Source: Psammoneis japonica | Taxonomy: Eukaryota | Assembly (NCBI GenBank): GCA_008632985.1 | Contig: QPGO01000033.1 | Location: 372,001-436,000, forward strand | Direction: 5' to 3' | DNA length: 64,000 bases | Shown here: in pieces, positions 8,100 through 64,000 of the stretch | Layout: every line of letters begins with the position of its first letter | Position numbering within the stretch: the stretch's first letter is position 1 | Program-made: the position numbers and the translations under genes | Notes under the pieces: generated by a model | Seen by the model: the letters and a program-made list of their open reading frames with translations, nothing else | Databases searched by the model: none | What the model was told of the DNA's origin: nothing

Positions 8100-11000
8100 G
8101 GCATGTCAACTTCATGCAATGAGAATCACTGTTTCGACCACTGTCATCCTTGATGCGGAACGCTGCAGTCGTTTTCCTCCTCTGCTCGCACTTGGATTCC
8201 CCTTGCTGCCACCGCCGTTGTTGCCACTGCATGCAAGGACCTGCCAAATTGCTGCTTTCTCTTGGCCGAAGTGCCACTTCAACCACCTTGCGTGTGGAAC
8301 CTCAGACTCAAGCCAAGCAGGTCCTCTTGTCCCACCTCTTTGAGTTGCTCAGCTGGCAGTCCCACAATCTTTCCATTTCCCACCTTGGGATCATTGCCCA
8401 GCACAAACACTCATGGCTTGACCAACATGTCAGAGAGAGCCACCCGGTCCTTTCAATGCAGTGTGTGTGTTCGAATCAAACTCTTCTCATGCAATGGGAA
8501 GGTCCACGATGATCATGCTCAATCTCCCAAATGTCCAAACCATGTGCATCAACACAGGTTGCAATGAAAAGCATTTTCCAAATCAAAAGGATTCCAGCAC
8601 ACTGCCTCTTGTAAGAATGTGGTCAATTGCCATGGTGTTTGTGGCTGCAGTGGGAGTTGGGTGTTCCGGTGTCCTCGTCAGCACTCAAGAATGCAGAACA
8701 GAGAGACAGCAGAGGAGTGCACAAAACATGTCAAGCAACAACCATGAACTCTGATCATTCCCATTGTGCTCAATCACATGGCAGCCAACAACTCTTTTTA
8801 AATGCTCTTCATTTTTTGTCAGCACCAGGCTGCAGCATGTGCTCCTTGGATCCATCAAATGTGAGTTTCTTGGGAACTGCAAATTCCAAAAAAATGGCAT
8901 TTTCTTTTGTGGTTGTTGTCAGTTGGCTTGTCTTGTGTAACTCTGTTCTGGCACACCTTGGTGGCAGTCTTCTGCACCAAAGAAGGGGTGGATGATCTAA
9001 CATCCGGTCACTTCTGAGTGGCAGGATTTCTTGCCCCTGACACAAAAATGTCCTGTCTGACATGCAACACCCCTTCCTGCTGACACATCAATTGAATGGT
9101 GTTTGCAAGAAGTGCACTCACTTGCAGCAACAACATGAATGCTTGGGGCTTGCAACCCATTCCAAGGATGAGGAAAAACTGAACATTGGTCCAAGAAACA
9201 ACCCAGCCAGTCATTTGATTCATTGCAAATGAGTTGTTGTTGTTGCTTGCCTCATTGTTGCTACATTGATCATCACCAACACTGCTCTTCATCTTGTCTG
9301 TGTTTTCCTTGTTGGAGTCATCATTGCTGTCTTCACTGCTGCTGCTGCAGTTGTTTTTGGTGCCTCTCTTGGGCCTCCCTTTGGGTCTTTTGCTGCACTG
9401 TGCTTCCGACCCACTTCTCTGTCAGCCTCATCAGCCTTCTTGTCTTTTTTGCAGGTGTTTGTTGCCAACTTGCGACCTTTGCCACAGCACCCTGAGCCTC
9501 CTCTCTTGCTTGAATGAGGCTGCAAGGACTCAAGAGTGCTTGCCCCCATTTGAAAAAAATGGCACAACAACAAAAAAGCATGTTGTTGCGCTTTTGCCAT
9601 TTGCTGGCTGCAGCAGCAACAGCACAACTCACCCATTGAAAAAGCTGTGAAGACAAGGACAGCATTTTGCTGGGGTTGATGATGAGCCATGCACTGCATT
9701 TTGGTTTTTTGTGGCAGCTGTCTCTGAACTCAACTTTCAACGAAGTTGGCCAGCCATGTCAACCTGCCAGCATCCCAGAAACACCCCAGTCAATTGTTGC
9801 CAATGACATTTTTGTGAATCTCATCTGCCTCACATGCAAAAGCTGAGGACATTGAATGTGGCAAAACATGTGCACTTTTTAGCACCAAAATGAGCAAAGT
9901 TTTGTCAAAACAAAGAAGCTCACAATTTTGTCAATCTCTCAATGCTTGACATCTGAAATGTGCCTCAATGTTGTCCAGGGTTTTGCCGCACAACAATTTG
10001 CGAGCCCTGGCTCAGAATGTTGCCTGCGCCACTTGTCAACTCTTTCTTGGGATGTGTTGGATGTGACTGGCTGTTGCACCCCCCAAAACATGACACATCA
10101 CAGCACACTGAGGTTGGCACGGTCGCTGCTGGTCTCTTGCCCACACAGCCACTTGTCACCCTTGCATTTCTTGGGAAGAAAAGAAAGACTTGAAACTTGA
10201 CGACCTTGTTGCTGCTGCCTGTGGTGTCAGAGGTCAAAATGGAGCACACCAGCCAAAATGTTGCAGACCAAGGTGGGTCCAAGGGTCTTTGGTGGATGTC
10301 AGTCATCCCAAAGAACCATGGCAAACAGCTTCAGGGTGAATCTCTTGTCCATGCAGCCACTTGTCACTTGAGCAGGAGATTTGAAATTGATGCTGCCAGA
10401 GCTGCTGTGATGCTGGGTGTGTCAAAATGGGGTTCACCAACCAAACAACTGTGGCCCAAAAGGTTTGAGGGTCTTGGTGATTGCCAGGCATCACTTTGAG
10501 AACCATGGCAGGGACAGCTGCAGGCAGGGTCAATCTCTTGCCCATGCAGCCACTTCTCACTTGAGGAGGACACATGAAATTTGATGCTGGCTGTGGTGCT
10601 TGACATCGAAATGGGGCCAAAGTGCCAAACAGCCACAGGCCAAAGGGTCCCAGAGTCTTTGGCAGGCATCAGGCACCATTTTAAAAGCCATGATGAACAG
10701 CTGCAGGGTCAATCTCTTGTCCATGCAGCCATTCTCACCTGCATGCCTGGGAGAGGAGACTTGAAATGTGATGCTGGATGCTGGTGGCTGTGGTGCTGGA
10801 GGTCAAAATGAGGCCCGCCAACCAAACAACTGCAGGCTGAAGGTTGAAGAAGGGTCTTTGGCAGGTGCCAGGCATCACCCCAAGAACCATGGTGAACAGC
10901 TGGTGCAGGGTCAATCTCATGCCCATGCAGCTCGCTCTCACCTGCATGTGTGAGGAAGGAGGCTGCTGGAAATGTTTGGAAGCACAGAACCTGCCACTTG

Positions 11001-11150
11001 TTTTTAAATTAAATTCAAACAAATGATGCACATCATGCCATCCTTCTGCAAATGTGATTGTGATGCTGGAAACAATGGCAACAACAGCTGCTTGTCTGCA
11101 CAGATGTTTTTTGCATTCTCAACTGCTCTTTGTCTGCGTGGGTTACTTGG
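8100..11150. mobile_element. CpG/TpA-depleted degenerate repeat block A (decayed TE; possible copia-type integrase fragment near 8830-8900, minus strand)
   Basis: CG and TA are nearly absent, TG/CA is in excess and there is no coherent ORF. The minus-strand peptide FLEFAVPKKLTFDGSKEH resembles the 'EFGVPEKLTFDGSKEQ' type of copia integrase motif (weak). Confidence 0.55.
10225..10960 (+). repeat. Diverged tandem repeat, ~4 copies of ~180-200 bp
   Basis: The anchor cagggt(g/c)aatctc(t/a)tg(t/c)ccatgcagc recurs at ~10332, 10526, 10704 and 10906, along with gtcaaaatg and aagaaccatgg. Confidence 0.8.
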
Positions 11151-16389: not shown

Positions 16390-17460
16390 CCGGAAAGTCA
16401 CTCAGCCATCAGCCATCACACATCTTGTCGCGTCAATTGTGACAGCCACGACGGACCTCAACAATGCCCTTGCCGCCATTCTGTGGTGGTTCTAGCTGCA
16501 TTTGATGAGGACAATGTTGCTCACTGTGTCATTTTCGAGGACCCTCACTTAAACGCTGAAACCCCGCGAAACATTTCGGCCTGGCATCACTGGCGCCGAC
16601 AGCAGCAGCACAAGGCCAGTCTCCACCACTTTGTGCAACTGTGAATGTTTGGAACAGCCATGATGACAAAGGCCAAGGAATCTCTGCATCGTTGGCACAA
16701 CATGGTGTTGCTTGCGCGTGCTTTTGTTTTCTTCATTCTTGCGTGAGAGTGACAGCAGAGACAATGAGGATGGGAGAGGGCTGGAGAGCCCAATGCTTGA
16801 GTGCCACAATCACACTGTTTGCTCGAGGTGCAGCTGGGGCCATTTCTCTGTCATGTGACTGGAACAACTGATGGCGAGAAACTTCAAGAAGAGGACATGA
16901 TTGGTCCTCAGCCTCTGTCTCAGCAGTGGCTGGTCAAAAGAAAATGCACTGTGCTGCCCAGTCTTCAAGGAAATGTGAAGAGCACCATCATGTCGTGACA
17001 TGGTCTGCTGCACCCCCATTCTTTTTGCAAGACCTGCAATGGCCATGTCTGCAAGACACAAGAAAAGTTCTGTGTTTGCCCACCATCTTTTTGAGTTTTG
17101 CCTCTCATGCTGCCACACACTTGTTTGTTGCTCTTTTTGTCGCGCAAGTTCATGCAAGGCTGTTTCTGTCTTCATTTCATGCACATGGGTTTTATTGCAT
17201 GGCATCCTCTGCCTCATTTCTTTCATTTGTTCCATTGGAAACCTGCGCGCTGTTGGGGTTTTTAGCCAACTCTCTTGTGTGAATCACCCTGGAGTCCTGG
17301 AGAGAGTTGGCGCGTGCCGGATTGCAAAAGGTTGCCGCTGCAGGATGTTTTCATCATCAGTGACATTGAGTCTCGACGAGCCACTTTGGGACCATGAGAG
17401 CGAGTGCTTTTCAATCTTGCATCTTTTGGGCCCGCAAAAGGTGAGAAGGTGGCAACAGTC
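16390..17460. mobile_element. CpG/TpA-depleted degenerate block B (unidentified repeat remnant)
   Basis: TA is almost absent and CG reduced over ~1 kb between two intact genes. No recognisable protein. Confidence 0.45.
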
Positions 17461-28329: not shown

Positions 28330-28759
28330 AATCTAATGCTAGAGTCAAACCTGCACGTGGTTTGCATCGCCGAGGCCAGCCGCAATCCTCGTCATGGTGG
28401 CCAATATTTCATATCTCCCGAATCATCGCATCATCGCGTGCGTGTTGGAGGGAAAAACGGGCGCATTGCAGACGGTATGAATACGATAGAACGCACGCAC
28501 GGCAAGCGCTGTTCCATTTATGAATGTCTTCATTCAAGAAGAAACAGCATAAATATCAACGTTAAATAACATGAGAACTCCGATACATATCGCGCAAGAC
28601 ACATTTGACGTCGTACTGTATGTACCGTACAGTACAGTACTTCTTGCCGGCACGTTTCAACACCACGACTAACCGCATCCCGCATCATCACTCTACACCG
28701 ACCGACCTTGTGCCTCATATGAATTGATCTGTCAAGTATGCAACGAATTATTGGACACC

Positions 28760-35915: not shown

Positions 35916-36489
35916 AAGCTGTCCTCTGAAACGGAGACTTTCGAGTCTCGTTTCACCCGTGACGCTACCACTACTACTGCCGGTATTTGTTTCGAGAAGA
36001 TCCATTGTTGACTCCCGTCCCCCGTGTAAACGGCCGCTTTCATGCTGACGTTTACCTTGATGGAAACAAGTCACAAGGATCAGTTTCAATTCTCGCGAAT
36101 CATCTTGGGAGATGATTCCTTTCATGGGCTCTTGTCTCGCACACCTTCTAGTGTCAAGACACCCGTGCCCATACAATACCGACAGTTCACGTGTCGACGA
36201 TCATTCTGGGGTTTGTATTTGGCAGACAAGGTGGTTCTCGAAAGAGATGGGCGCTTTTTCTGCACACAACTTCACATTTCATATTCTATTTACGTCGAGA
36301 TTGGGATCGACTGCTCAACAGTTTAGTACAGTGGCGGAGCAACGACGTTGTCTTTTGCTCTCCACTCTCAAATACACTACAGTGTGTGTATTACTTGTTT
36401 GTTTATAACTTTACTTAGCAAACAAGTTGTTAATGAGACCCGACAAGGGTCCAAGGAAGGACGGATTTGCGTAGAGCCTACTATACTAC

Positions 36490-41960: not shown

Positions 41961-42343
41961 CTCGACTGACGAACGTGGGTGCAGTGAAACGACTTGGATG
42001 GCGCTTCGTATTTGAGTCTTCATTCCTTTTGATTCCGATGAAACTTTACGATCTGAAAAATAGTTTGATGACGTGTAGGTTTAACGACTCAGACATCAAA
42101 CCCCTTCTCATCTTCCCACCGGCAGGTCTCAACGGGCGCGAAACAGCGATGAAAAGCACTGTTCAACGCATACAACGCATGACCATTTCCACTATCGTCT
42201 TTTGTGAGGGAAGCGGTATCGCGGAACATCAAGATCACTTTGAGTTCCGCAAAATCAATCACCGCTGTCTCATTCACTGAATCAGCCTCATTCAGCCTGA
42301 TGAGCTGGTTATCTCAGCTTTTCATGGGAAGCCTCGATTCATC

Positions 42344-44509: not shown

Positions 44510-44651
44510 TTCAAAGAAGCACTTCCAGGAAGAGACAAGCTTACAAGCTATCAAGGAATAAGAAGTGCCCCCGTGGATTTCGATACTCTTGCTTGAGTTG
44601 CGATTCATCCCTTGGCACAACTTACATGATTCTGTTGCTTGTCCTAACCTT

Positions 44652-45272
44652 TGTCCCAAGATGATCTCCCCGAAGCTTGGCTTTGTCCCTTTCTACTCCA
44701 AGATCGACAAGGTGCCCCCTTGGAGGACGGTGTGATCGTCTACTCCCTTGGCATCATGCAATGGGAGATTTGTAAGGGCAATTCTTTGCTTTTCAAGGTC
44801 CACAAGGTTGACGCTGTGCTTTGTAGATGTCGACCACTCGGTTGTTTCCTACCAGGGCACGTCCGCACAAAGATATGGTTTCCCCGAAGCTTGGCTTTGT
44901 CCTTTTCATCGAGATCGACAAGGTGCCCCCGTGGAGGACGGTGTGATCGTCTACTCCCTTGGTATCTTGCATGGAGATGTATGTAAGGGCGAGGCTTTGC
45001 TTTTCAAGGTCCACGAGATTGACGCTGTGCTTTAAAGATGTCGACCAATCGGTTGTTTCCTACGATAGCACGTCTGTCCAAAGATGAAGCTTGGCTTTGT
45101 CCCTTTCCCAAGATCGACAAGGTGCCCCCGTGGAGGACGGCGTGATCGTCTACTCCCTTGGCATCGTGCATGAAGATATATGAAAGGGCGTGGCTTTGCT
45201 TTTCAAGATCCACAAGATTGACGCTGTGCTTTGAAGATATCGACCACTCGGTTGTATCCTAGCATGGCACGT
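44652..45272 (+). repeat. Tandem repeat, 3 copies of ~200-215 bp
   Basis: gaagcttggctttgtcc...agatcgacaaggtgcccc..ggaggacgg.gtgatcgtctactcccttgg...ttgacgctgtgcttt recurs at ~44672, 44886 and 45086. Confidence 0.9.
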
Positions 45273-46782: not shown

Positions 46783-47703
46783 ATGGCGACACCGACGGCA
46801 TCTGAGTTGAATCAGAGCACCGAGGATACTTCGTGGCTTGACGCCTTTTCAATTCTTGATCCAAAGGTGAGTTTGTGAAAAGCATATGAAGTAATTGATG
46901 AATTCTGAGCTCACAATTTTCTATTCACAATTTTTCAACAAAAAACACCGCATATAGGCATATTTGAATGGCTTTCTTGAAAAGGACACAAGACCAGATG
47001 GACGTTTATTGTATGGAGTTCGTCCTACAGTAATTCACAAGTCCACACTGACAAAAAACTCGGTGGGTTCGGCCTTGGTAAAGCTCGGTCAAACCCAAGT
47101 CTTGGGAGCCGTCACGCTGCAAGTGGGACAGCCCTCGGCAGCGGCTCCCAACGAGGGAGACGTGCAAGTCGTGTTGCAACAACAAAACGACAGCGGCGAT
47201 GATGACGAGTCGTGGATACAATCCTTGCTGCAACGGCATGTTTTGAATGTAAAGATTTGTGTATCAAAGAGGGTAAGGCTGCCTGGCGATTGGTAGTTGT
47301 TCTGCAAGTACTGAATGAAAATGGCAATGTCAAGGATGCCGCCTTTTTAGCAGCGCTGGCGGCTCTTGCGGATACCAAGCTTCCCACCAATATCGTATGG
47401 AACAATGACAAGGTGGAACTGTCGGACCAAGACGAGTGCGTCGCTTTGAAATTAAACAAGGTGGCCGTCCTCTTTCGATTGGTTTGTACAAGGATAGCAA
47501 CGAAAAGATTATCTTTTTGGTGGATCCAAGTCCACTCGAGAGCCAACTATTGGAAGGGACAATCACGTTGGTGGCCACGACCAACCAAGAGTTGGTGAGT
47601 GTGAACTATGTGGAAACGCTAGATTATCCATTCAGGATCTAAGCAAGTGTGCACACATGGCGTTTGGACGGGCCGAAGAACTGACTGGCTATTGTTGGAA
47701 TAA
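46783..47703 (+). CDS. RNase PH-family exosome core subunit (RRP43/RRP42-like)
   Basis: RPDGR, GSALVKLGQTQVL, LCIKEGKAAWRL.V.LQVLNENGNVKDA...AALADTKLP and LVDPSPLE. Intron 46867-46957. About three 1-bp frameshifts. Confidence 0.75.
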
Positions 47704-48157: not shown

Positions 48158-48591
48158 TCAAAAGTGACGGGTACGCTTGCCCTTGGGAGCCTTGGAGCTT
48201 CCCAAACTGCTAGAAGGAGACTTGGATTCCTTCAGCTGACGGCGTTTGCCCTTGGGAGCCTTGGACGAGGGAGACTTGGATTCCTTCAATTGACGGCGCT
48301 TGCCCTTTGGCGCCTTGGAGCTCGAGGGAGACTTGGATTGCTTCAATTGACGGCGTTTGCCCTTGGGAGCCTTGGACGAGGGAGACTTGGATTGCTTCAA
48401 TGACGGCGTTGGCGCTTTGGCGCCTTGGAGCTTCCCGAACTACTCGATGGCGACTTGGTGCTCTTCGAGTCCTTTCCTTTCAAGGCCCTCGCAAACACAC
48501 TAGCGTACTCGTCGCGTAGACCAAAACAAGACGTTGCGCACAGAGACACAAGGAGAGAAATGAGAAGAGGAACAATGAGGGAGAACTTCAT
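48158..48591 (-). CDS. Silaffin-like secreted Lys/Ser-rich repeat precursor
   Basis: Signal peptide MKFSLIVPLLISLLVSLCATSCFG, then RAL, then ~5 units of K(E/Q)SKSPSS(S)KAPKGKRRQL (54-57 nt repeats). One 1-bp frameshift at ~48400. Confidence 0.75.
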
Positions 48592-49139
48592 GGTGACTGT
48601 TTCTTTTAGGCGAATCTTCAAACAAGAAACCGAAAGACCCGATTGCCAAAATTGTGAGAAGTTGGAAGGAGAGAAATAGTTTGGAACATCCGATCCAACG
48701 GTAGGAGTCCATTTCGATCAGTTCATTACGATCGTGAACACGTCAGCGTGGCGTGAGTTACAGCATTCTTAGCGTGATACTGTTTCCGGGACTCTAGCGT
48801 TTTGTGGTACAGTCTCTGTCGCCACTTAGATAACCACACGTAACAAACGCAAATTACAAGATACACAGAAACTTCTTTTGATTTGTGTTGACAGAAAGAA
48901 TTTCCTAGACTAGCACTTTTAACAAATTCATTCGTTCTTGACTGGTTTTTACAACTGCAGACTTTCTCATCTAATTTTTTTTTTAGAATATTATTTTGCG
49001 TGGGAAGTGCTGACCAAACTGCCAGCACACAATCGCAGGATTCCTCTCCTCTACTGTACGATGATTTATGCAGAATGCGTAGAGAAACCAGTGCGCAGGA
49101 TTGCGTGTAGGATTTGCACTTAATTTTCTTAAAACCACC

Positions 49140-52100
49140 TTCATCCACGAATCATCCCTCCACCACCACGACAAATCACCGTGTCATCGCCAATGCTTCA
49201 TTGCATCCGGTTCTTTTCTGCATCTCTGCTGCTGTGTCCAGCTCTTGTCAAGTTGTTGCTGTTGTTGAGCCCGTTGTGCGAGTTTTTGCAAGCTGGCAAT
49301 TTCGCTGTGCTTGCAAACAAGCAAAAGCTTGTTGCTGGCCACACTCTGCTTTCTGACTGTTGTTGCATTTGGAAACAGAGCTGCCAAAACTAATGCTGCT
49401 GATCTCCTGTCAAGATGTTGACATCATTTTTGGTTTGCAGACTTGGCAACCTTTGTTTGGGGGGGTGCACTTTGGGTGCTGACATGTCAACAGCGGCAAA
49501 TGCATCATGGCTGGGAGATCATGGCTGATTTTGTTCTGGTTGAGACAACCTGTCATGCTGTTGTTTGGTGTCTGACATTTTTGAGCACAGCTGCCAAAAC
49601 AGATGCCACTGATCTCTTGACAATGGGGCCAAGCTCCTCTTCATTGTCTTTGGCTTGCAGACTTGGCAACCTTTTTGGCGTGCACTTGCAAGTGCAATTT
49701 GCTGGCTGAACTTTTGTTTGCACATGCAAGATGTTGTCACTTAATTGGCCAGTTTGCTCAGCTAAAAAGTCAGTGCCCAAGACAATGAGTTGCAGCAGCA
49801 TTCAGACAAAGCTTCATGGTTGGACTCTTTGAAGCCACCGAAGTCATGCTGGCTGCTGAGCTGGATGATGGTTGCTTGGAAGCAGCCAAACTTTCCATTT
49901 TGGTGAAGTGACAAAGATCCTCAATCTGCAACCTTGTGTGCTCTTTCTTTTGCAGTCTTGTGTCAACACTCATGACCAAGGTTGAGCCTTTGCCAGCTGT
50001 TTGCTGGAAGAAGCAGTGCTGGAAGCAGTGACACAAGCAATGTGCAAGTGTGCCTGGGGTGCTTGCAACTCTCCAGCAGCAGCTTTGCTCTGTCAAGGCA
50101 CCATCTTGCCAACTCATGATTGCATGCTCTCTTCTCAGAAGCAATGGATTTGATCATTTGCTGCACTGCATTTGCTGTGCAGGATTGGTCAATGTGAAAG
50201 CAGCTCAGTTGCAGCTGCAGCTTTTTGCTCTTGGTGACATTCATCTAAAGATTTGTGGCTGCAGTGGTTGGCTGGAACAGATGCTGTCAGAAATGCTCTT
50301 GCTTTCTGTCTTCATGGGGTTTGCAAGATGCAATTGGATTTTGCACAGAAAACGCTCTGCAGACCTTTGCTTTTTTTTGCTCCAGCTTGCACTTCTATCT
50401 TGCCATGAGCAAATCTTGTGCAACATGTCCTTTTTGCTTTCAACTGGCTGCAGACCCAAACAACCTCTTGCTCCAGGAAAGCACTCGGTCATGGAGGATG
50501 CCTTGGTGGGTTGATCATCAGCCCAGTCAATTGCAGCTGCTCTTTGAAAGCCTGGCCATGGCTGCCACAACTTTGGGCGCACAAGCACACAATGCTTGAG
50601 CAAGAGAAAATGTCTGGACAAGCAACAATGGACTTTCTTTGTGAATGAATGACTGTCAATTCAACAAAAGAAGAGAGTTCATTCCTGCTGGTTGCATCAA
50701 GTCTTTTGCATCATTGGTGCTGCAATGTCAAGAGACTTGTCATGCTTGTTCACAGCAAGTTTGCCAGCCAAGCACTGCAGTGATGCAGGCACCAGAAAGT
50801 TGGAGATTCTGAAAAAAGTTTCTTGTGTCTCTTCCTCTCTTGGAGCAAGAGAACAGTGGCCAAGCTTGGCTGGGATGATGAGTTGCAGCAAAGCAGCACT
50901 CAGAAAAATGTGTCTGCAGCATGCACCAAGAATTCTGCAGCCCGCTCCAGTCAGCCCCACTTGTTGTCCATCCCTCCCCAGTTCTTAAAGACAGGGACAT
51001 TCATCAGATCTCTGAGCATCAGAGCAAATTGCTTGTCTTCCTCTGATTCATGAGAGCAGTCTGATTTGGAAGAGACCAGTTGACAAAAGGTGGGGCAGAC
51101 CACCACTCTGACACACAATCTGCAATTGAGCTCTAAAGTGCTGATGATGACTTGGGATTTGTTGACCCAGTTGTGCAGCATTTTGGGGAGACAAGTTGAC
51201 AGCCTTGTGACTTCTTTGTGGTTGACTTGCTTTTGCAACATGCAATGTCAGCAAATGAGGATGGAGCTGTGGTGTCAGGTGCACTCAAGTTCAAAGAGCC
51301 TGAGGATGACAGGAAAACTCTGACAAGCCAATCACACTCAGCTGCAGCAGAGGTGTTTGTGGCCACAATGACAACAACAAGAGCATTGCTGCAGGTTCTG
51401 GAGGGCCTGCAGGTTCAACCTGAGAAGCATTGTTTCTGACTCAGCTGCCTGGCAATGAAGGCAGGTTTCTTTGGAGTGGAGGGGTGGAATCGCAAAAAGG
51501 TCCAGCTCTGACTTGGGAGAACCCAGTTGCAGACTTCATTGCCAAAGAGCCACCAAGAAAAGGCAGAGAGAGGAGATGAAGAGAGACAAAAACCCATTGG
51601 CACATTTCACACAGCAGCTCCAAAGACATGCTCATTGACCTGGGGCTCCCAACAGAGTGAGATGTGCAAAATGAAGCAGGAGCATCTCCATGCCCCACAT
51701 GAACAACACCATCCCATTTTTTGCTCAGCAACCCCAGCTGTTCAATTGCTGCTTGTGTCATTGTTGTTGTTGTTGTCAACCACCCAACACTGCACACTTT
51801 GGTTGCATCAAGAGAGATGTTGTCATCAATTGCTGATGCCAAAACACACAGAGAGACAGTCTTGACAACAGCACAGATGTCTGTGATGGTGAGAGAGACA
51901 GAGACATGCAAAAGTGAGCAAACCAGTTGCCTTGCAGGGAGACATTGTTTGCTGTGTCCCCAACAATTTTTTTCTTCTTGGACATGAACTTTTTTGTGAC
52001 TTCTGGCAAATGCCCACCAGCTTGGTGGGCAAGTTTCAAGCACATTTCACATGGTGCAAACATGCAGATTTCTGCTTTGGCAATGCACAGAAATGCAGCT

Positions 52101-55100
52101 TTCGCCCACGCTGCACAATTGCGGTGCTGAGTTGTGTGCAGCACGCCAGTTTTTTTTTTTTTTGCAAATCTGTGCATCATTTTGCACAGGGTGCACAAGC
52201 ACCTGCTGCAAGTGGCAGTGTGCTCAAATCTGCACAGGCAACTGCTGTGGGTGCTTGCCCACATGCATGCCACAGTGACGCTGGGCCCACAGAACTCCAC
52301 ACATGAGGAGCTCTGCACTGAAATCAAAAGGTGATGAACAACTGATGGTCACCAAGAAAAAAGGCCTTTTTGCATGCAACAGCGCAAACTCATCCATGCT
52401 TGAAGTGTGTGCCTTGGTGTTTTCTGCAGACATCAAAGAAATTCCCAGCCTGGCTTTTGCCATCAGAAATGGGCAAAATGAAAATTCTTTGGTTTCAAAA
52501 CACAAAAATTTTTGCAAAAGAGTGCACAAAGACATGCGCGTGCATGACATGCAGCCCATGATCAAAAATGTTCTGTCACAGTCCCACAACATGCCCGCCA
52601 ATTTGGTGCACTCCCCTGAGACCAAAAGCAAAAGCACAAAAACAAAAAACGAAACATTGCAGTTGTTCTGCAACTCTCTTGTGCTTGAAAACAACATTGT
52701 CCACCAAATGAAGCCACATTGTTGCATGGCTGCCCCTTTCAACCACACTTTTGAGTCCAAAATTGATGTCCCCACTCAATTTGCATTTGCTTTGCAACAC
52801 CAACAACAGTCACCTCAGAGTGGTGCAAACAAACCCTTGCTTGCCATCCGCACTTGTTCATTGTCTTTTGTTTTGTTGGTGCTTCAAAACATTGGCCATC
52901 TCTTGATCACTTGCTTTCTTCATGAGACACACAAAAGAATTGCCACAAAGGGCAAAAAACTGCTGTCGTGTGATCTGCACTCTCTCACACATCATTGTGT
53001 TCACGCAGATTTTTTGAAAACAAACAACACTGAATGCCCAATCTTTGTTGGGTGGCAAAAAGAGATTGATGACAAGCACATTGATTGTTCTGTCAGACAT
53101 GTGCAGAAGGAACTTGTTTGCAGATTGAGCCACACACCAACTTCTGCATGGAATGACAGGTGCTTTTTTGTGCAAGTTCCTGTGGATGTGTTGCGCGGCT
53201 GTTTTTGACAATTTTTTGTCATCTTTGCAGCTGCAGAACTGATGCCACACATGGGCAATGCAAAGTGAGCATGACATGCATCATGATTTTGATGTGTTTC
53301 AGCCCCCAGGTGGCAGGGCTCATGTTGCACACAACACCAGGCCTGCAAACAGAATGAACTGCAATGGCACAACCATCTGTCAGGAGCATGCAACATTTTG
53401 CTGTTGCACATTGACCATGGCCAGCGAGATCAAGGGAGTCAGGTTGTTCTTTTGGCTCAGACAGGCTCTCAATGTGTGGCACATGCTGTGGCACATTGGA
53501 TGACAGTGGGAGCAAGTGAGTGCATGTGCATGATGGGAAATCCAAGGAAGAGCTGAGGGAGTGGAGGCACATTCCACAGTGAAGCAAATGGCTGGGAAAA
53601 AACAAAAATTAAAAAAGAACCAAGGTCAGAACAAACAAGGACTCAAAAGGTGCCAAAAATTGGGAAAGGAGACACACAAGAGAAGGACGAACAAGGATGC
53701 TGAGCAATGTGATGAAATGTGGTCCAAGCAATTCTGGGATGATTGTGTTGACTGCAAAGAAGTCCTCTGGATGGATGGGGGATGGGCAATGTGATGTTGA
53801 TGGAAGCCGATGACAGCGACAATGAACAGAGGAGAGTTGTGGTTTGCAGATGCACTGCAAACAGCAGTGCAATGGTCATCTGGTCAGCCAAAAAGACAAT
53901 TGAGTGAGAAAGCAAAAGCACACATCAAAAGCATGATGAAACAAAAATTTGCTGCAAAATGAGAGTGCATCTTGGTGATTTGTGTGCTGTGACAGCAGGA
54001 AATGAAAGGCACAGCTGCGTGAACAATCTGGCATCATGAGATGACAAACAACCACCAATGATTGCCAAAGGGGAAGAAGTGATTTTTCATGCAAGTGAAC
54101 AAAGTCATCCATGATTGAAATGTGCACATTGTTTTTGGTGTGCATGGGTGTTTTCTGCAGATGTCAAAGAAAAAATGCCTCTCACACTGGCTTTGCTGTC
54201 AGAAATTGCCCCAAAAAATTTTTTGACCGTGCAAAAGAAGCTGTGTGAAACAATTTTGTCTGAGAGCACAAACAGAAAAGCAGCCCATGATTAAAAAATG
54301 TCCTGTCACAGCCCCGCACTGTCGCGCAAGGTCTCAACAACCAACAGAGCTGGAGCACCGCTGCAGTGGTTTAAAAAGAAAAACACCTGAATTTGGCAAT
54401 GTGTTGCAACCTCTGATGAAGGCAAGGACAGCTTTGTCAGATGGCACAAGTTGCACGGCATGAACCAAGCTGATCATTTTCACATTGGGCATGAAGCTGT
54501 CCCATGCACGAGAGCACCTTCTTGGCACAACAACAGCCACAGCAGCAGGTGCACAAACCACCTCTGTGTGCATGCGTCTCTCAGGACAACCAGCACAACT
54601 TCTGAGTTTTGAAGTGCATCAACAAAGAAGCTTGCACCAACATCCATGTGTCCCCAGTCCAGCCTTCAACATCAAGGAGGCCACCATCATTCACACAAAT
54701 CAAATGAATTGTGGTGGCATGATGAATGCGTGCATGGTCAGCAAGCCACAATGTCTTGCTGTTGCGCGCTCATTGTGGCTCAGCAACGCAAAGGGTGCCA
54801 GGTTGTTCTTTGGGCTTGGGTTTGTCCCAGAAAGAAGTCAACAAGTGTGCATCATGCACACATCACAGACCGCCCCAACTGACCCTTTGTGCTCAACTGC
54901 AGCAGCGCATGCAAAGACAATTTGAAATGAAAAACAGTCATTTTTGGGGCATGTCAACTTGATTGTGCATTGTCAAGGTCAGTTGCACCTCATTTCTCAT
55001 GTCTTTTTTCTCATTGTCAGTGCTTTCACCATGGTCTGTTGTTTTTCTGATTCAGACTCTGATGACAACTCTGTTCACTCCAACAAATTTTTGCGCTGCC

Positions 55101-56500
55101 CCAGCAGTGATGAGGACCCATCCAGAATGCCACTGCTGTTGCTGCTGCCTTGCATCAGTGTGCAGCAAACAAAGAAAACCAATGCAACAGCACAGGAGCA
55201 GATGGCTGGCACCATGTTGGTGACAACCCAAATCTTCAGATGATGAAAACAAACCCACGATTGCCACCGCTGCAAATGCACACCACACCACTGTTGCTGC
55301 TGCCTTGCATCAGCATGCAGCAGACCAAGAAAACCAACACATCAACACAGGAGACAGGTGGCATCAAGACAAGGACAACTTGTTTGATGCAGACAAGGAA
55401 GAGAGTGACAACAATGAGCCTCCTCTCTGTGCAACCAGAACAAGGTGCATGAGATGCTTGAAGTTGTTGATGCAGTGTTGTTGGCACGACATTTGTGGGG
55501 TTGGAGTTGGACCAAGTGGAGCAGCCCTGTCCTCTTGATGTGACTTCCCACTCAAACAACAAGAAGAGAACCCTGCTCACTTTTTCAGCAAGGGTGCCAG
55601 GCAGAATGCACTTTGTTTTTTTGCAAGGTTTGGAGGGTGTTCCAAGTTGTGCTGGGTGTTCCAAGTTGTGCTGCCAGCACCATTGGACAAGCAGCCCCTG
55701 CAACAAGCTTGCATGATCTTCACTGATGGTGATTCCCAAGAAATCAAAGAGCTGTGTGGTGCCATGTGCAGGCACATGCCTTCAACCCACCAAGCCAGAT
55801 GCAGGAGGCACAATTTTTGCAAAAGCTGGATGATGCACTGCCCCAGAGAAAAAGCATTGTGCCCCCCAATTGCAAAAGCTTCAAGCTCCAAGTTGCCGTG
55901 ATTGAGGCATGGTTGCACTCATTGATGCATCGGGGTGGGTGCAAGAACAAGGAGGAGATGATGGTGTCCAAGCAGGCATTGCTGCCAATGTTTCTTCATT
56001 CTTTGCTGGTTCTCCAGGTGTGAGGGAGTCAAGTCAACATCACTTGCATGTTCAAATTCATCCAAGGCAAAGTCTTCAACAAAGAAGCCAGCTGCACTTG
56101 TTGCCAAAAGAAGTGGGTGCATTGCTGCAAAGAAGCCAACAACTCAAGCCAAAGGAGCCAACTTTGGCATGAAAAATCATGTGGCCCCAGTGCTGCTGTC
56201 ACAAAGCCTGGCCACCAGTGAAAAAAATCTTGCAATGCAGTTGGGTGCAAAGGTTGTGGAGTTGATGCATCAGCCAAGCTGCAAAACAAACACACGGTGC
56301 CTGTGGTCAAAGCTGCCAATGGCGAATCACGTTCTCGCCAAGTGCATTGGAAGTTGCTTGCAAACAAACCAATGAGGAAGGAGACAAATGACAAGGTGCT
56401 CTTGAACAAGATCTCAAAGAAGAAGAAAGCAACAATGCCAAGGCCAGCAACCCACACTTCAAGTGCAACATCCCCAAGCGCCAATGACGCGTTCCAGCCC
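49140..56500. mobile_element. CpG/TpA-depleted degenerate block D (nested TE remnants)
   Basis: CG and TA are near-absent. Internal diverged duplications at ~49380/49590, ~52330/54050 and ~55130/55290. Confidence 0.75.
55490..56400 (+). mobile_element. MULE (Mutator-like) transposase remnant
   Basis: Fragments LDVTSHSNNKKRTLLTFSAR, WVFQVVLP...MIFTDGDSQEIKEL...RCRRH and EANNSS...NFGMK match the MULE D..D..CxxH..E layout once TG/CA are back-mutated. Confidence 0.65.
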
Positions 56501-56746
56501 TAGGTGGGACTCCGTGTGACATTGGGCCCGTAGAATTCTACGTGCGAGCTCCGTAGTACGAGAATTTAATCGATGGATATATTTATCTTCAACATCAAAT
56601 AAACGGCCAAGTTTGTGGTACAATTATGCCTCTTACCACTCGACGTTTTTGCAACTTCGCCTGCCCTACGCGATTCTTAAGACATTAAAGAATCGCGCTG
56701 TAACAAAAAATGTCAAAAGTTGTTGGACGGATCGCTCAATAAGTGT

Positions 56747-56747
56747 N
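56747..56747. other. Ambiguous base / probable contig join
   Basis: Single 'n'; composition switches abruptly from normal to CpG/TpA-depleted exactly here. Confidence 0.8.
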
Positions 56748-57998
56748 TTGAAGGCTTGCTGGAAAATGATGCAAAGGGCCATGCATGGCAGATCATTTTG
56801 ATCCATCTGTTGTCCCTGACAACCCCACAACCATGAGAGAGGACATTTTTGAGAGACTGGGTGATGCCATGTTGTTGTTGACAAACTTGCTCCCTGGGAC
56901 AAGCTGAGCAAGCTGTTGAATCCACCATGCCCTTGATGAACACTGCTGCTGCCAGCTTTTCACAGATTTCAAATGTCAACATGCAAAACAATGAGGATGA
57001 TGGGACCAACCTTGGGTTCAGATTCCTGGATGATGCATGCCAAGATGGCTGTGACTTGTGGGCAAACAACATGAGAGTGACAAGCTGCAGGCAGTCGCCA
57101 ATGATCAAAACCCTTGCAACACATCAGCTGGTTGCACGGCAAATCAACCACAACTGTTTTGTGGTCAATTGATGCAAAACAACAATGGCTTGCACTTTCG
57201 TCTAAAAATCACCCATTGCGAGGTCAGAACACCAACAATACTGTTTGTTTTGCTGCTTTTGGCATGTCTGTTCCCAATCTTGGCACTGTCTGATGGCAAC
57301 ACTTGATCACCACGCAAACATGCATTGTCAATGCATCCCATCACCAACCTCTCTTTCATTTTCTGTTGTTGCACCTGAGCCCAAGCACTTCAAACCCAGG
57401 ACTTTCTGAGACATTCTCTTCTTTGCCCAGCAGCATGAGATCACAGCACCATTCCCAAAGATGTGCCAACATGTCAAGCTGCATGTTGTCAAGTGTGCAT
57501 CGCCCTTGCGTCCACAAAGAAATTTCATTGTGTCTTCACTCCAACAAAAACAGTCAAGCAATGTCTGCTTCTCCTCTTTCCTGTCAAATTCCATGCCACA
57601 GCACATCTGAAGATCATTGTGGCACCCCCCTCACACATCCAAGAGTTTGAGCAGCACTCTTTTGGGGACACCCACAGCAGCAGAACTTGGAACTCTGCAT
57701 CTCATCCACCTTGTTTGCATTTTCCCAGTGTTGGCCACCACAGACGCGAAAGCAGGGTTTTCCATTGCTGGACACTTTGCCACTCCAGATCCAGCAGCCC
57801 TTGGTGTTGTCACAGCACAGGTGGCAACCCTCAAGTTCATTCAATGGAGCAGTGATCATTTGGAAAATTTCTGCAATGGGAATCTTGAGTGAGCAACATT
57901 TGATGTCCATGCAATCAAGATCATCCGCGACATGTCCTGCAAGAGAAAATGCAGCAGCCATGAGCAGAAGGCTGTTGGATGCAAACACCAGCATTTGA

Positions 57999-59836
57999 TG
58001 GTTCTCTTTCTTCTTTTCTGCCCACTTTGCAATGAGACAATCAAGTCCAGTCTCCAGCATGGGAAGCAACTTGTCAGCACCTTCCTTCATTTCATCAGTG
58101 ACATCCAAGTTGAGGGGTGCACCCTTTGGTCTAGAAAAGATGTGCGGCACCAGCCCAAGCTGGAGAGGTGTTCAGAAGGCTTCTTTCAAACTGCCAAGGA
58201 AAATGCAGAGGTTGTCGGGGCTGTCACTGTGAACATTGGATCAGGCAACAAATCAAAATCTGACAGCTCAGGTTCTTTTGGCAAAATGCCAGCTGCAAAA
58301 GCAAAGACAAGCAGAGCTCCAAGGCCACCGCTGTTCAAAGGATTGTTGTCAACCTTGCAAGTTGAACAAACACCAGCATCCTTCACTGGATTGACAAGTT
58401 TCCAACTCCATTCCTCCTTTTCCTTGGCACCTTCAAAAGCAAAAACAACAGCGTCATTGGTCAACAACAGAAGATTGGGGTTCACAGGAAATGCTGCCTC
58501 CAGCACGCTCCAAGCTTGTTTCACAAACTCAACCATTTCCTTTGCTTCATCACTGAGCTTGGACTTGTCACAATGCTCCCACCCTCTTTGGGGTTGGGCT
58601 TCTCAATGAAATGTGTTTGATGGCTCTCTTTCTTCTTTTCTGCCTGCTTTGCAATGAGACAATCAAGTCCAGTCTCCAGCATGGGAAGCAACTTGTCAGC
58701 ACCTTCCTTCATTTTGTCAGTGACACCCAAGTTGAGGGGTGCACCCTTTGGTCTAGAAAAGATGTTGCGGCACCAGCCCAAGCTGGAGAGGTGTTCAGAA
58801 GGCTTCTTTCAAACCACCAAGAACAATGCAGAGGTTGTTGGGGCTGTCACTGTGAACATTGGATCAGGCAACAAATCAAAATCTGACAGCTCACATTCTT
58901 TTGGCAAAATGCCAGCTGCAAAAGCAAAGACAAGCAGAGCTCCAAGGCCACCACTGTTCAAAGGATTGTTGTCAACCTTGCAAGTTGAACAAACACCAGC
59001 ATCCTTCACTGGATTGACAAGTTTCCAACTCCATTCCTCCTTTTCCTTGGCACCTTCAAAAGCAAAAACAACAGCGTCATTGGTCAACAACAGAAGATTG
59101 GGGTTCACAGGAAATGCTGCCTCCAACATTTCCAAGCTTGTTTCACAAACTCAACCATTTCCTTTGCTTCATCACTGAGCTTGGACTTGTCACAATGCTC
59201 CCACCCTCTTTGGGGTTGGGCTTCTCAATGAAATGCATTCGATGGCTCTCTTTCTTCTTTTCTGCCTGCTTTGCAATGAGACAATCAAGTCCAGTCTCCA
59301 GCATGGGAAGCAACTTGTCAGCACCTTTGTTCATTTCATCAGTGACACCCAAGTTGGAGGGTGCACCCTTTGGTCTAGAAAGGATGTTGCGGCACCAGCC
59401 CAAGTTGGAGAGGTGTTCAGAGGGTTTCTTTCAAACCACCAAGAACAATGCAGAGGTTGTTGGGGCTGTCGCTGTGAATGTTGGATTGGGCAACAAATCA
59501 AAATCTGACAGCTCAGGTTCTTTTTGGCAAAATGACAGCTGCTGAAGCAAAGGCAAGCCAAGCTCTGAGGCCACGCTGCTCCTCAAAGGATTGTTGTTGA
59601 CCTTTCAGGTTGAACAAACACCAGCATCCTTTGCTGGATTGACAAGTTTCCAACTCCTTTCTTCCTTTTCCTTGGTGCCTTCAAAAGCAAAAACAGAAGA
59701 TTGGGATTTGCAGGAAATCTGCCTCTGACATGTTCCAAGCTTGTTCACAAACTCAGCCATTTCCTTTGCTTCATCACTGAGCTTGAACTTGTCACAATGC
59801 TGCCACCCTCTTTGGGGTTGGGCCCTTCAATGAAGT
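57999..59836 (+). repeat. Tandem triplication of a ~622-bp unit
   Basis: ctctttcttcttttctgcc...gcaatgagacaatcaagtccagtctccagcatgggaagc recurs at ~58004, 58626 and 59248. Confidence 0.92.
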
Positions 59837-62800
59837 GTGCATCAAGCGGTGCATTTTGACATGTTGGTGCCATTTGAATCAAGTTCATGCTGACAAAGCG
59901 TGTCTCCATCTGACTTGTTGTTTTCCTGTCTGTCAACAAGCACTGCACACCCTTTTTCACAGCATGCAAAATCAATTGAACTTTGGCAGCAGCATCTGAG
60001 TTTTTTTTGCACTGCTGTGCTCTTCCATGGCTTCTTCTGCTTCAGAAAGACCAAACAATTTTCCACCGGCAGCCTCAACCTTGTCAGCGAACATGGCCTG
60101 GGCAGTGGCATGGATCATCACTCATCAGGCAGGGTCAACCAACGTGTCCTGCAGGTCCTCTCCTTGGCAGCTTGCAGATGTTTGAGATGTCAAAGTGTGG
60201 ACACCACTTTGACTGAACAGAATGCTTTGCAGCCTTCCTTCTTTCTTTGCTTTTTTTGGGGTGACAAGTCTTGTTTCATCCAACCAATGGATTTGTTGGC
60301 AGGGTCAGGGACAGGCAGACCAGAGTTGACAGCTTTTGGTGGAGTGTCGAGCTTTGCCCTTTTCAATTGTCTCACTTCAACATTTGGATCATTTTGTTTC
60401 AACACTGTCACTTTCTTTGCACTCTTGGGGGGTGCTCTTGCAAAGGACTTTAGCTGCCAAAGAGGGTCTGGGGGTGGGTTCTCATGATGCTCCTCTGCTT
60501 TCACCGAGTTGTGCAACCTTGACACATGTTTAACAAACCCAAATTCTGAGTCATTGAAGCACTTCGCACCAATGAAAATGAAACAAAAACCATCAAAAGA
60601 CATGCAAGATCAAGACCAATGGCCAAGTGACAATCAAGAGATGCGCCCTTTTTCACACAATTCTGACATGGTGTGAAGGCACCATCGTGGGTCACGACAC
60701 GCATGGCATCAGTTCATTTGGTGTCTTGCAAGCAGAGGTGATTGATTGGCAATGGATTGACCATTGTTGATTGTTGGCAGTTCAGCGGCATGCAAAAAGT
60801 CTTTTGTTCGCGTTTCCCATGCATGGAACAAAAAAGTGGCCAATTTGTCATTGTGGTCAATTTTCCATGCAACCAGTCAGTGCCAAGGACAAACACCCTG
60901 TTTGGTTTGTTCGAGTCTGAAGATGTTGCAAGCACAGATCCTCCAGACATGCAACCTTTGGTTGTCAGAGCAGATGAGATGATTGCAGAGACAGAGGAAA
61001 GCTCCACTCACTCTGTGTTGGCTGATGGGACCATCAGCTGACCATGATGAAGCAGTGCCTTGTTGGGTGTCCAATTGCAGCAAGAGGGAAACCAAGCATC
61101 AGCGCACCCACACATGTCACAACGGTGTGCACAAATGGTGGCAATGAATGTTCAGCAACAATGCAAATCATTGTGCATTGTGCAAACTTCAATGCACAGC
61201 TCAGCTGATGTCTGGACCTGATGTGATGATCAGGTCTAACACCGGCTGCATTGTGCAGCACTTTTTGTGCCAAGTCAATGCTCTCTTGACCAAGCGGCAC
61301 TGGCAGGTTCACTGGGCAGTTCACCCAAAACTGATGCTTGGGAGTCATGAGTTCAGGGGGGAACTCAAGCAACTTCAAACAGTCAATGCTGGGCAAGGAG
61401 CACAGTCTCAAGTCTGCTTTTGTCTTGACACATCAAGCAACCTCACCCCATTCTTCCAACATCCTGCTGCACAGAATTTGCTTGATGTGCTCAAACATGG
61501 GAGAGTCCCCAAACACCAGCACATTGTAAAACTCACACATTTTGTGATTGTCTTGTTTCTTCTCCTTGCAGATGAACAACTCAAACCACCTCTCTCTGCA
61601 CACTGAGTGTGCAAATGTGCATGTGCAAATGACAACACACAATTTGTGCACCTCTGTCTCTGCAGTGGTCAGCCAAGCCGTGTTCTGTTTTCAGATGATG
61701 AAGAAATGTCTTGCCAAAGGTTTGCACACTGTGGGTTTGCTGTCCAAACAGTTGGTCACAGGCAGCTCATGGTTGACAGCTGCTGTGAAGGCATTGCCTG
61801 GTTTGACAACAGCCTGTGTGTTGCCATCCAGGATGGCAGGAAGAAACCAATTGTCCCCTTCTGACCAATGTCATGAGCACCGGTCAAATTGCCAGATTGC
61901 TCCACATTGTCATTCAGCAGGCCAAATGAGGATTTGTGAGCCTTTTGATTTGGTCCATCTGGTTGGGAGTGGCTTCAACAAAATCTTTTCCGGAGGTGTG
62001 TGCACGCTGCACACCGCCACCTGAGCACAGGTTTCCAAGGTCCAATCATCTTCAGGCATGACATCAGTGTCCGGTTTGAGTGCATTGCAGAAGCAATGAA
62101 AGTCTTCTTGTCTGCCATGCTCGTGCTTGTGCAAATGGAACAAGTGGACAAACATCTTGGCCAAGTGACGCCCAATCAGCTTGTCAACCATGTTGCAGCA
62201 CAGCCTTTTGCAATGGCCCACCAACAGCAGCAGCATTCGGGCAGTGACACCCAAAAAACAAGGACCTGGTGCACATGCGTGCATTGCACACTGCACCAAA
62301 ACCAGCTCAAGATGGTTGAGCCAAAGTGTCAAAGCAAGACAAAGGCACAGGCAACCATGTGGCTTGCTCACCTTTGCTCAATGTGTTGCCAAGGCAGCGA
62401 CAAGACACATCAAATCACTGGTGGTTGCTGACACATCTGCCCAGAATGTTGTCGCAGGCATCTTTTTTTTATCACATCATTGCAGACACATCAAATTGCT
62501 GGTGGTTGCTGACACATCTGTCTAGAATGTTGTTGCAGGCATCTTGTTTTTTCATCACATCATTGCAGACCTTGCACATCTGGCAGTCAATGGCACATGT
62601 TGTTTCAACCTTCCATTTTCGGGGTCTTGTTCCAGACTGGACAGGCTGACCACTTGGCTGTTGTGCCATTTTTGGCATCATCATGATGCTTGCAATTGTG
62701 GCCTGGAACTTCAAACATCTCACTTGGACATCCAACATTCTGCATTGTCTTGGGGTCCAGAGTGTTTCCAAATTTGGAGCTGCAATCAGGGTGAGTGGGA

Positions 62801-64000
62801 TCAGCAAATGGAGGGGATGCTGCTGGCCTTTGGGGATGAATGCACCATTTTGCACAGCTGCACTGGCTTTTTTCATGGCGCAAATGAACACAGGATTTGG
62901 AACATGGGTGCTTGACTTGTTGGACTTGGGCAACCAGGTGGCTTTAAAGAATGCTGGGGTGACTGTGTCTGTCATCACAGTGGTTGGCTGGCTTTTGACA
63001 TTTCACTGATTTCTTTTCTGGAGCAGCATTGAATTTACATCCACACTTTGTTCCAGCTTTGATGCCAGACCAATCAACATCTTTTGCCAACGTGGCAGCT
63101 TCTTTGTCATCATGGATGACTGTTGTGGCTGTTGTTGCAATGCACAAGTGTTTTGGGGTTGCACAGATGATGCGGGGCAGGAGAGATGCAGGGAGAAGCA
63201 CAAACCTGTTGAATCCATTTGTCAAGAAACTGATCAGGCACTGGCCATGTCCATGCTCACCACAGTGCAACAAGTGAGCTTGATGCTTGGCCTGCAGCCA
63301 GAAGTGAGTTTTGGAGACATTGTTCAGGATGCAGTCTACACTGAGTCAACCTTGGTTGATCAGAGCAAGCTGCTTGTCCCTGGAAAGTTTGAACTGTTCA
63401 TTGTTGTTGAACTTCTCCAAAAAAAAAACATGATTGAAAATGAGCTGCTTGTGCAGAGAAGCAGGCAAGGAATGGCGCAAGTGCCAGAACACCAGTGGGA
63501 AGCCAATGACACATTCCAGCCTTGGGTGGGAGCTTCCAGTGTGGACGTGTGACACAAATGTTTTTTGTCATCCGTCACATGTTTTGCACACACATTTCTG
63601 TGTGTTGTCACACAAAAATTGTTCCACACTGCCCATTTTGCAAAGCCCCAAACATTTCATTCGGTGCATTTGTGGGAACATCAATGCACCCAATGCACTC
63701 TTGAATGCATGAAGAGTCCATTGGGTCAAGTGAAAAATGATGTGCTTCCATCATGGACGAGTTGGTGTTTTTGCAAAATTGTCTCTTTTTCTGTTGGCGA
63801 TCATTGGCACATTCATCACCTGACAATTTTGCTGCAGAGCTCGCACACAGAATTCTGTGGGCCCAATGATGTGCCAGTTCCACCTGCATCTGGGACGTGT
63901 CCAATGGGTGACATGGGAAGGCAGAAGCAATTGTTGGAGGCATTGGCAGACACGTGTTTCAGGGGACAGGACTCCGTGTGACATTGGGCCCACAGAATTC

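Follow-up and report, generated by a model that had tools for sequence, protein, structure and literature searches.

Joint loss of CpG and TpA to TpG/CpA at constant G+C in bounded repeat-like blocks of Psammoneis japonica DNA

Repeat-induced point mutation (RIP) in Neurospora and other fungi, a premeiotic process that is set off by sequence duplication and needs RID, an enzyme of the DNMT4 type, converts CpA to TpA and leaves TpA-rich and AT-rich DNA behind. To our knowledge, fungi are the only organisms in which a hypermutation aimed at repeats is an established genome defence, and its known forms act on cytosine alone and produce AT-rich scars. Excerpts of PMC3318451 describe a hypermutation directed at TCG/CpG in basidiomycete repeats. 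Here, we analyze a 64,000-nucleotide stretch of the Psammoneis japonica contig QPGO01000033.1 (positions 372,001 to 436,000 of the forward strand; assembly GCA_008632985.1), hereafter called the window. It contains five blocks of repeat-like DNA, one of them carrying the remnant of a probable DNA transposon, in which most of the CpG (CG) and almost all of the TpA (TA) dinucleotides have given way to TpG/CpA (TG/CA). The blocks share with fungal RIP a DNA-level transition hypermutation of repeats, sharp borders, ruined coding sequence and action after duplication. Unlike RIP products, they have TpA destroyed, CpG as the cytosine target and a constant G+C content. With the decay of 5-methylcytosine (5mC) at CpG in methylated transposons they share the change of CG to TG/CA, on both strands and in silenced repeats only. 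Both CpG decay and the basidiomycete process leave TpA alone, whereas in the blocks TA is lost more completely and over a wider range than CG. Repeat-targeted hypermutation (fungal RIP) and CpG decay are known; the TpA>TpG/CpA signature with its G+C-neutral outcome has no precedent that we know of. Full-text literature searches, supplements aside, returned no description of a joint CG and TA conversion in repeats of diatoms or other eukaryotes, and the accessible portions of PMC2806351 and PMC7466962 do not mention it.

Two groups of enzymes that act on adenine or thymine invite comparison. The A>G chemistry of the TadA/ADAT and ADAR deaminases fits, and their 5' T(U), together with the 3' pyrimidine in the case of TadA/ADAT, resembles the pattern of surviving TA reported below. 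TadA/ADAT enzymes act in the tRNA anticodon loop, with T(U) before and a pyrimidine after the target. The natural substrates of TadA/ADAT and ADAR are RNA, and we know of none acting on chromosomal double-stranded DNA. Dinoflagellate 5-hydroxymethyluracil (5hmU) is a thymine modification with a TA/TC preference that is tied to the silencing of transposable elements (TEs); the accessible portions of PMC11572971 describe it as a mark, not a mutator, and make no mention of TA erosion.

Base composition of the blocks

Composition was expressed as observed/expected (o/e) dinucleotide ratios in 1-kb windows, and block limits were taken from 200-bp windows. Within the blocks, the CG o/e ratio was 0.02–0.30 as compared to 0.76–1.23 in gene regions, and the TA o/e ratio was 0.00–0.18 (mostly at or below 0.08) as compared to 0.40–0.77. 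TG and CA were raised to 1.46–2.16 and 1.72–2.26, respectively, and G+C ranged over 0.46–0.53 in the blocks and 0.42–0.54 outside them. In the block cores (five blocks, together ~22 kb), we counted 160 CG against 1181 expected from the flank density (a ratio of 0.135) and 41 TA against 755 (a ratio of 0.054), while TG reached 2361 (1464 expected) and CA 2464 (1585 expected); the Poisson tails of these counts lie below 1e-250. The CG- and TA-poor blocks that had been proposed from an earlier reading of the same letters (the original prediction) are thus real, and their coordinates agree with the limits obtained here: 8201–11100, 16601–17200, 36901–40800, 49201–56400 and 56701–64000. For the block at 16.4–17.5 kb, the proposed loss of TA held (~10% left), whereas the near-absence of CG did not, as ~40% of it is kept; the same correction applies to the margin at 40.8–41.9 kb.

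Relative to the flanks, the blocks have lost 49.1 CG and 34.6 TA per kb (83.7 together) and gained 44.4 TG and 41.4 CA per kb (85.7 together). Conversion of both CG and TA to TG/CA predicts exactly such an agreement between the TG+CA gain and the summed losses, while CG loss on its own covers barely over half of the gain, so CpG decay as the sole cause does not describe the blocks. The similar TG and CA gains indicate that both strands were hit about equally. Nor do the blocks resemble the TpA-rich, AT-rich product of RIP: TA has fallen to 0.054 of its density in the flanks, and overall G+C is 0.474 in the blocks and 0.480 in the flanks.

The domains are sharply delimited, with borders 100–200 bp wide. 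All 30 TA-free gaps of at least 250 bp in the window fall in blocks or block margins, and the longest measures 2476 bp, whereas the median distance between TA sites across the window is 19 bp. With TA nearly gone, TAA and TAG stops become impossible, leaving TGA as the sole stop codon. The original prediction had also described the block translations as Cys/His-rich and nearly Tyr-free; this was borne out on the single stretch checked, a minus-strand reading of 57350–58108 (253 residues with 0 Tyr, 19 Cys and 7 His).

The blocks, the elements used to reconstruct their ancestral states, and the contigs from one sequencing run (X1) that span block borders are as follows.

8093–11100: block 1, CG- and TA-depleted
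16529–17318: block 2, a small intergenic zone with TA almost lost and CG ~60% lost
36901–40800: block 3 core, with 25 CG and 11 TA in 3900 bp
40801–41911: block 3 margin, TA lost and ~44% of CG kept
40791–41000: high-copy repeat fragment, depth ~4660 in run X1 as compared to ~60
49130–56480: block 4, with TA-free runs of 2476 and 2129 bp
56748–63968: block 5, CG- and TA-depleted
57350–60030, minus strand: DDE-transposase-like remnant, decayed and frameshifted, identified by a protein-family match
57994–59839, minus strand: tandem unit of ~621 bp in three copies, corresponding to family residues ~385–500
36075–40819: X1 contig over a block border
40968–44750: X1 contig over a block border
48402–52037: X1 contig over a block border

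The loss of TA extends beyond that of CG, producing margins with ~10% of TA and ~40% of CG. Positions 16501–17300 hold 3 TA (29 expected) and 18 CG (46 expected), and positions 40801–41900 hold 4 TA (40 expected) and 28 CG (63 expected). In the block cores, 5.4% of TA survives as compared to 13.5% of CG. These survival figures, together with the margins, indicate that the two signatures are separable and that the TA signature is the faster one.

Ancestral states of the converted dinucleotides

An exhaustive HMMER search recovered a protein family of ~780–1300 residues whose members include hypothetical proteins of two Thalassiosira species, and which is also encoded at 27 metagenome loci (L001–L027). 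Its best match in the window is the block 5 remnant (tblastn E-value of 3e-44), which allowed us to compare decayed codons with family-conserved residues. Not one of the 11 family-conserved Tyr columns is still Tyr in the block copy: four are now Cys (TGY), two His (CAY), two Phe, one Trp, one Glu and one Val. Conserved Phe was kept in 12 of 14 columns and conserved Trp in seven of nine (Fisher p = 5e-6 for the contrast with Tyr), while only one of 14 conserved Arg columns remains Arg and six now read Cys, Trp or Gln. A single reversion explains 39 of the 129 mismatched conserved columns (TG/CA>TA in 21 and TG/CA>CG in 18), as compared to a mean of 13.1 when consensus residues are shuffled, with none of 2000 shuffles reaching 39; for the other 90, no single reversion offers an explanation.

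The sequence context of these changes was equally specific. At TA, 21 of 123 possible reversions are accounted for by A:T transitions, as compared to 7 of 162 elsewhere (odds ratio of 4.6, p = 5e-4), so the enrichment of TA>TG/CA over other A:T transitions, which the original prediction had proposed as a check, is indeed present at ~4.6-fold. The corresponding figures for G:C transitions are 18 of 107 at CG and 7 of 177 elsewhere (odds ratio of 4.9, p = 4e-4), and with CG loss confined to the blocks, the C>T/G>A change in repeats that is characteristic of RIP is found here as well. When one tandem copy was dropped, the p-values became 0.002 (TA) and 0.012 (CG). For A>G reversions considered separately, 17 of 97 were explained at TA and 3 of 88 away from TA.

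Relatives of the element, the only identifiable one in the window, have an ordinary TA content. Tyr makes up 1.5–3.3% of residues in 31 of 32 family proteins, the exception being an 89-residue fragment without Tyr, and the TA o/e ratio is normal (0.47–0.80) at all 27 metagenome loci. The CG o/e ratio of the same loci spans 0.43–1.02, and some are decayed at CG alone with TA normal (CG o/e ratios of 0.43–0.6, among them L004 at 0.43 and L013 at 0.48). TpA-poor relatives, which the original prediction had taken as the sign of composition rather than mutation, were thus not seen among these loci and proteins.

The tandem unit within the remnant provides a comparison between neighbors. Its 621-bp copies differ by 3, 10 and 10 double swaps of TG versus CA per pair, with 3 in the younger pair and 10 in the older pairs, as would be expected if each copy resolved an ancestral CG or TA independently. 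Three repeats outside the blocks showed no TG/CA swap among 8, 9 and 1 adjacent double differences. A tandem repeat at 44661–45272 (a unit of ~210 bp, 85% identity) with normal CG and TA served as a control.

Further ancestral states come from the high-copy repeat in the block 3 margin, whose depth in run X1 is ~75-fold that of single-copy DNA. Of the 11 variant places listed for positions 40844–40965, 8 carry TA (6) or CG (2) in most other copies, as judged by depth, and CA or TG in the window copy. Across this 200-bp repeat, six ancestral TA were changed and one remains, while two CG were changed and ~10 remain. Most of the other copies are unmutated, although the piece is too short to say much about a duplication trigger; it had no protein homolog, Rfam family or tRNA match. 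Two allele differences in block 3 (TA/TG at 39325 and CA/CG at 40269) both fall at target dinucleotides, albeit without evidential weight, since about half of random transitions there would strike such dinucleotides.

Codon reversions, tandem swaps and the balance of losses and gains converge on the view, put forward in the original prediction, that mutation within bounded domains and at constant G+C turned CG as well as TA into TG/CA where the DNA lies. At the level of these sequence comparisons, our data demonstrate that mutation acted in place and continued while the tandem unit duplicated.

Candidate mechanisms

Surviving dinucleotides carry information on the preferences of the process. 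YTAR accounts for 27 of the 41 surviving TA sites (TTAA 11, CTAA/TTAG 11, CTAG 5), as compared to 16% in the flanks (p = 9e-13), while the RTAY words (ATAT, GTAC and ATAC/GTAT) have one survivor in the blocks against 460 sites in the flanks. A CTAG, which belongs to the YTAR class, is retained in all three tandem copies (58132, 58754 and 59376; 622 bp spacing). The most over-represented product word is TGC/GCA. This pattern suggests a preference for T-A-pyrimidine on either strand. Among surviving CG, GCGC is enriched and TCGA is depleted. AA and TT are not depleted relative to the flanks (+8.8 and +11.2 per kb), and no conversion of TC is visible in the block-versus-flank dinucleotide counts.

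We consider it probable that the blocks are silent remnants of repeats and transposons, hypermutated in situ at the DNA level after insertion and duplication, with two activities converging on one silenced domain. Two context-specific transitions operated on both strands, CpG to TpG/CpA and TpA to TpG/CpA, with TG/CA as the end state and the G+C content staying put. The first activity would be (methyl)cytosine deamination at CpG, arising either spontaneously at methylated sites or by catalysis through a RID-like DNMT4. The second, of which we are less confident, would be a distinct A:T>G:C change at TpA that is faster and highly specific. Its favored form, a candidate already named in the original prediction, would be an enzymatic deamination of adenine within DNA. 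The resulting inosine is read as G, and the reaction would work best with a pyrimidine 3' of the A, given that the surviving TA is mostly YTAR; the narrow restriction to one dinucleotide and a T-A-Y-like preference reminiscent of TadA/ADAT substrates speak for this form. Targeting could follow either the chromatin state or repeat homology. Excerpts of PMC9998398 describe RID-related DNMT4 genes in many centric diatoms as being of unknown function.

The loss of ~95% of TpA within such sharp limits argues for an activity whose substrate is adenine or thymine in chromosomal DNA. That this is a chromatin- or repeat-targeted, TpA-specific DNA mutator (an adenine deaminase or a thymine-altering enzyme on double-stranded DNA) working beside CpG deamination is a tentative proposal, to which we give a little less than an even chance. 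Such a mutator would be a G+C-neutral counterpart of fungal RIP, erasing the Tyr codons and the TAA/TAG stops of invading elements. If true, a natural TpA-specific enzyme would be of interest for base editing and DNA-repair biology. The finding would also offer a possible function for the RID-like DNMT4 genes of diatoms and explain how old diatom repeats evade homology-based annotation, and the joint CG and TA deficit would serve as a simple genome-wide marker of silenced chromatin in major ocean primary producers.

Several points weigh against this interpretation. Adenine deamination in double-stranded DNA is not known for any natural enzyme. Because TA is palindromic, A>G on one strand is indistinguishable from T>C on the other. 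The entire analysis covers one 64-kb window through its sequence letters, the codon-level ancestral states come from a single element in one block, and ~10 of the 39 explained reversion events are counted repeatedly through the tandem copies. The preference for a 3' pyrimidine rests on survivors, with coding flanks as the comparison. The flanks of the TG/CA swaps do not display the R..Y excess that this preference predicts (8 of 33, the other classes being Y..Y 15, Y..R 8 and R..R 2, with pairs that are not independent), and one of the six conserved Tyr codons turned Cys/His changed on the disfavored strand. In a tetranucleotide analysis, the CG and TA losses predicted the TG excess weakly (r = 0.34), a fit limited by the coding DNA that served as the reference. 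Finally, run X1 shares its sample and study with the only other runs that contain the stretch and may be the assembly's own data, so the independence of its platform is deduced from depth and accuracy.

Among the alternatives are two in which the blocks were never mutated at all. Modified CG and TA could have been miscalled as TG/CA and left unpolished within repeats, and in favor of such an artefact, the effect is limited to repeat-like DNA, the weakest zone for short-read polishing, while indels between X1 and the window in block 4 (9 and 22 gaps) hint at imperfect polishing and all sequencing runs containing the stretch come from one sample and study. The X1 contigs argue otherwise. Built as de Bruijn contigs from exact 31-letter words, at a depth of ~56–66 and with the longest at 315 kb, they show the window's TG/CA letters and cross three block borders. 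Mismatches to the window number 9 of 4745, 0 of 3783, 25 of 3637 and 17 of 3343 letters (0.2–0.7%, apart from the identical 3783-bp piece); genuine CG and TA at these places should have produced ~84 per kb. Such depth and accuracy are atypical of noisy long reads, suggesting a high-accuracy, copy-reading platform. Short-read chemistry reads copies, in which 5mC, N6-methyladenine and 5hmU pair normally. The element, moreover, bears damage that does not involve CG or TA, namely five stops, frameshifts and the 90 unexplained mismatches. Of the base-calling check put forward in the original prediction, the identity of letters in ~60-fold contigs therefore stands, and the independence of the platform is an indirect conclusion; we regard an artefact as unlikely. 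A native composition, in which these sequences had always avoided CG and TA through selection or foreign origin, is the least credible of all the explanations considered. It accounts for the composition itself and nothing more, and is contradicted by conserved Tyr columns turned Cys or His, by relatives with normal TA at 27 of 27 loci, by the TA and CG in other copies of the 200-bp repeat and by the TG/CA swaps between tandem copies. For block 5 and for the 40.8-kb repeat, it is refuted.

The remaining alternatives accept the mutation and differ in its source. By analogy with dinoflagellates, a thymine-modifying dioxygenase would be the main rival to adenine deamination, although the corresponding single-system model is itself rather improbable. 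In this model, a 5-methylpyrimidine dioxygenase of the TET/JBP type acts on silenced repeats and oxidizes both 5mC at CpG and T at TpA; mispairing of the oxidized bases, 5hmU or 5-formyluracil on the one hand and 5-formylcytosine on the other, would turn T into C at TA and C into T at CG, and conversion would stop at TG/CA, since a pyrimidine-purine step of this kind has lost its self-complementarity. 5-Formyluracil mispairs mutagenically, and both targets are self-complementary YpR steps, lost in the same sharp domains and equally on both strands. In the accessible portions of PMC11572971, a dinoflagellate TET/JBP enzyme makes 5hmU and aids TE silencing, and earlier work cited there found T replaced preferentially in TA and TC. 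The blocks show no visible TC conversion, however; TA and CG losses are uncoupled at the margins, where TA is gone and ~40% of CG is kept, and the flank preferences differ, with TA surviving as YTAR and CG as GCGC while TCGA is lost most. Error-prone patch repair, a candidate named in the original prediction, fits poorly and has only a slight chance of being correct. In this model, T:G mismatches at deaminated 5mCpG draw a polymerase resembling DNA polymerase eta, which mutates A in nearby WA motifs. DNA polymerase eta prefers WA, with TA its hottest word in somatic hypermutation, and the CG and TA losses do occupy common domains. The supposed by-product is nevertheless more complete than its trigger (5.4% survival of TA as compared to 13.5% of CG) and is seen where CG is still ~40% present, AA and TT are undepleted, and A>G away from TA explains just 3 of 88 reversions. 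Even less probable is the editing of RNA intermediates by ADAR-like A>I and APOBEC-like C>U activities, fixed by reverse transcription. ADARs do produce A>G hypermutation with a 5' U preference on double-stranded RNA, but the identified element is related to DDE (cut-and-paste) transposases and is no retroelement, adjacent tandem copies diverged in situ by TG/CA swaps, and the TG and CA gains are symmetric between strands; in addition, Pfam scans of the blocks found no reverse transcriptase or integrase domain.

Block contents and neighboring genes

The family to which the block 5 element belongs is probably an unclassified group of DDE transposases, possibly with a Mos1-like fold. Pfam searches, DDE_1 included, found no family in the seven members scanned, none of the 26 listed family proteins (P0003 and P0008–P0032) has a precomputed Pfam entry, and the family profile had no match below an E-value of 0.19 among PDB sequences. 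The Atlas clusters nearest to the family carry DDE_1, and the family has an invariant S-T-D-D stretch. A family AlphaFold model of moderate confidence (pLDDT of 67.7) found its best structural matches in the Mos1, Sleeping Beauty, TnsB and Mu transposases, with Mos1 as the top Foldseek match (E-value of 2.4e-4, probability of 1.00), albeit at TM-scores of only 0.18/0.35. The DDE_1 neighbor clusters and the S-T-D-D stretch liken the family to Tc1/mariner-pogo DDE transposases, as the structural matches may do, while the missing Pfam and PDB sequence matches and the low TM-scores set the family apart from them. Based on the DDE_1 in the nearest clusters and the transposase matches of the model, the block 5 element is probably the remnant of a DNA transposon.

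The original prediction had described all blocks as TE blocks. This is confirmed for block 5 and is plausible for the others, which yielded no Pfam family and no similarity to one another. Pfam searches of 27 long open reading frames (ORFs) from the blocks gave no families except two sub-threshold chance matches, those of 24 six-frame read-through translations of the blocks gave none, and a homology search with the longest block ORF was without result. The blocks are not similar to one another by blastn or by tblastn of ORF pieces, and Rfam and tRNA scans of the window returned no matches. Besides the block 5 element, signs of repeat DNA include tandem arrays, the high-copy fragment and diverged X1 contigs, with 207 of the 360 X1 contigs on the stretch having a likeness below 95%. 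RNY periodicity and RY-codon likelihood are weak tools for finding decayed coding DNA: the latter singled out a coding remnant at 57.6–59.8 kb and picked the correct frame for only 15 of the 31 control windows.

Three smaller features lie within or next to the blocks.

10133–10964: decayed tandem repeat in block 1, unit of ~190 bp
56480–56746: island of normal composition between blocks 4 and 5, ending at a single N (56747)
63969–64000: first letters of another island copy, with CACA where 56507–56538 has CGTA

The island holds 20 CG and 18 TA within 56401–56746, and in 200-bp windows block 4 is also briefly interrupted around 54.3 kb. The CACA in place of CGTA suggests that the second island copy is mutated. 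Blocks 4 and 5 measure ~7.2 kb each and both then run into island sequence; this recurrence may mark the terminus of a younger element or reflect a join made during assembly.

The gene regions next to the blocks were covered by a further run, X2 (labeled "DNA?"), which looks RNA-like: its depth is very uneven over 42.0–48.8 kb and next to none over the blocks. One X2 contig skips 91 bases with GT..AG ends at 46864–46956, resembling an intron. Neither the X2 cover nor this joint was counted as evidence of expression, and run X3 gave no contigs on the stretch; no RNA run is listed among those that contain it. The tandem repeat at 44661–45272 sits in this transcribed gene region. Further upstream, at 24583–28332 on the minus strand, a 1249-residue ORF combines vWA domains with a MoxR-type AAA ATPase (bpMoxR, AAA_5 and AAA_lid_8), and its nearest Atlas cluster is mostly from diatoms (Bacillariophyta). 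With the Thalassiosira members of the element family, this makes it plausible that the DNA is of diatom origin. According to Pfam, bpMoxR is a component of MoxR-vWA-beta-propeller ternary systems. On the plus strand, 28673–30739 carries a gene resembling class-C G protein-coupled receptors, with both a ligand-binding domain (ANF_receptor) and 7tm_3.

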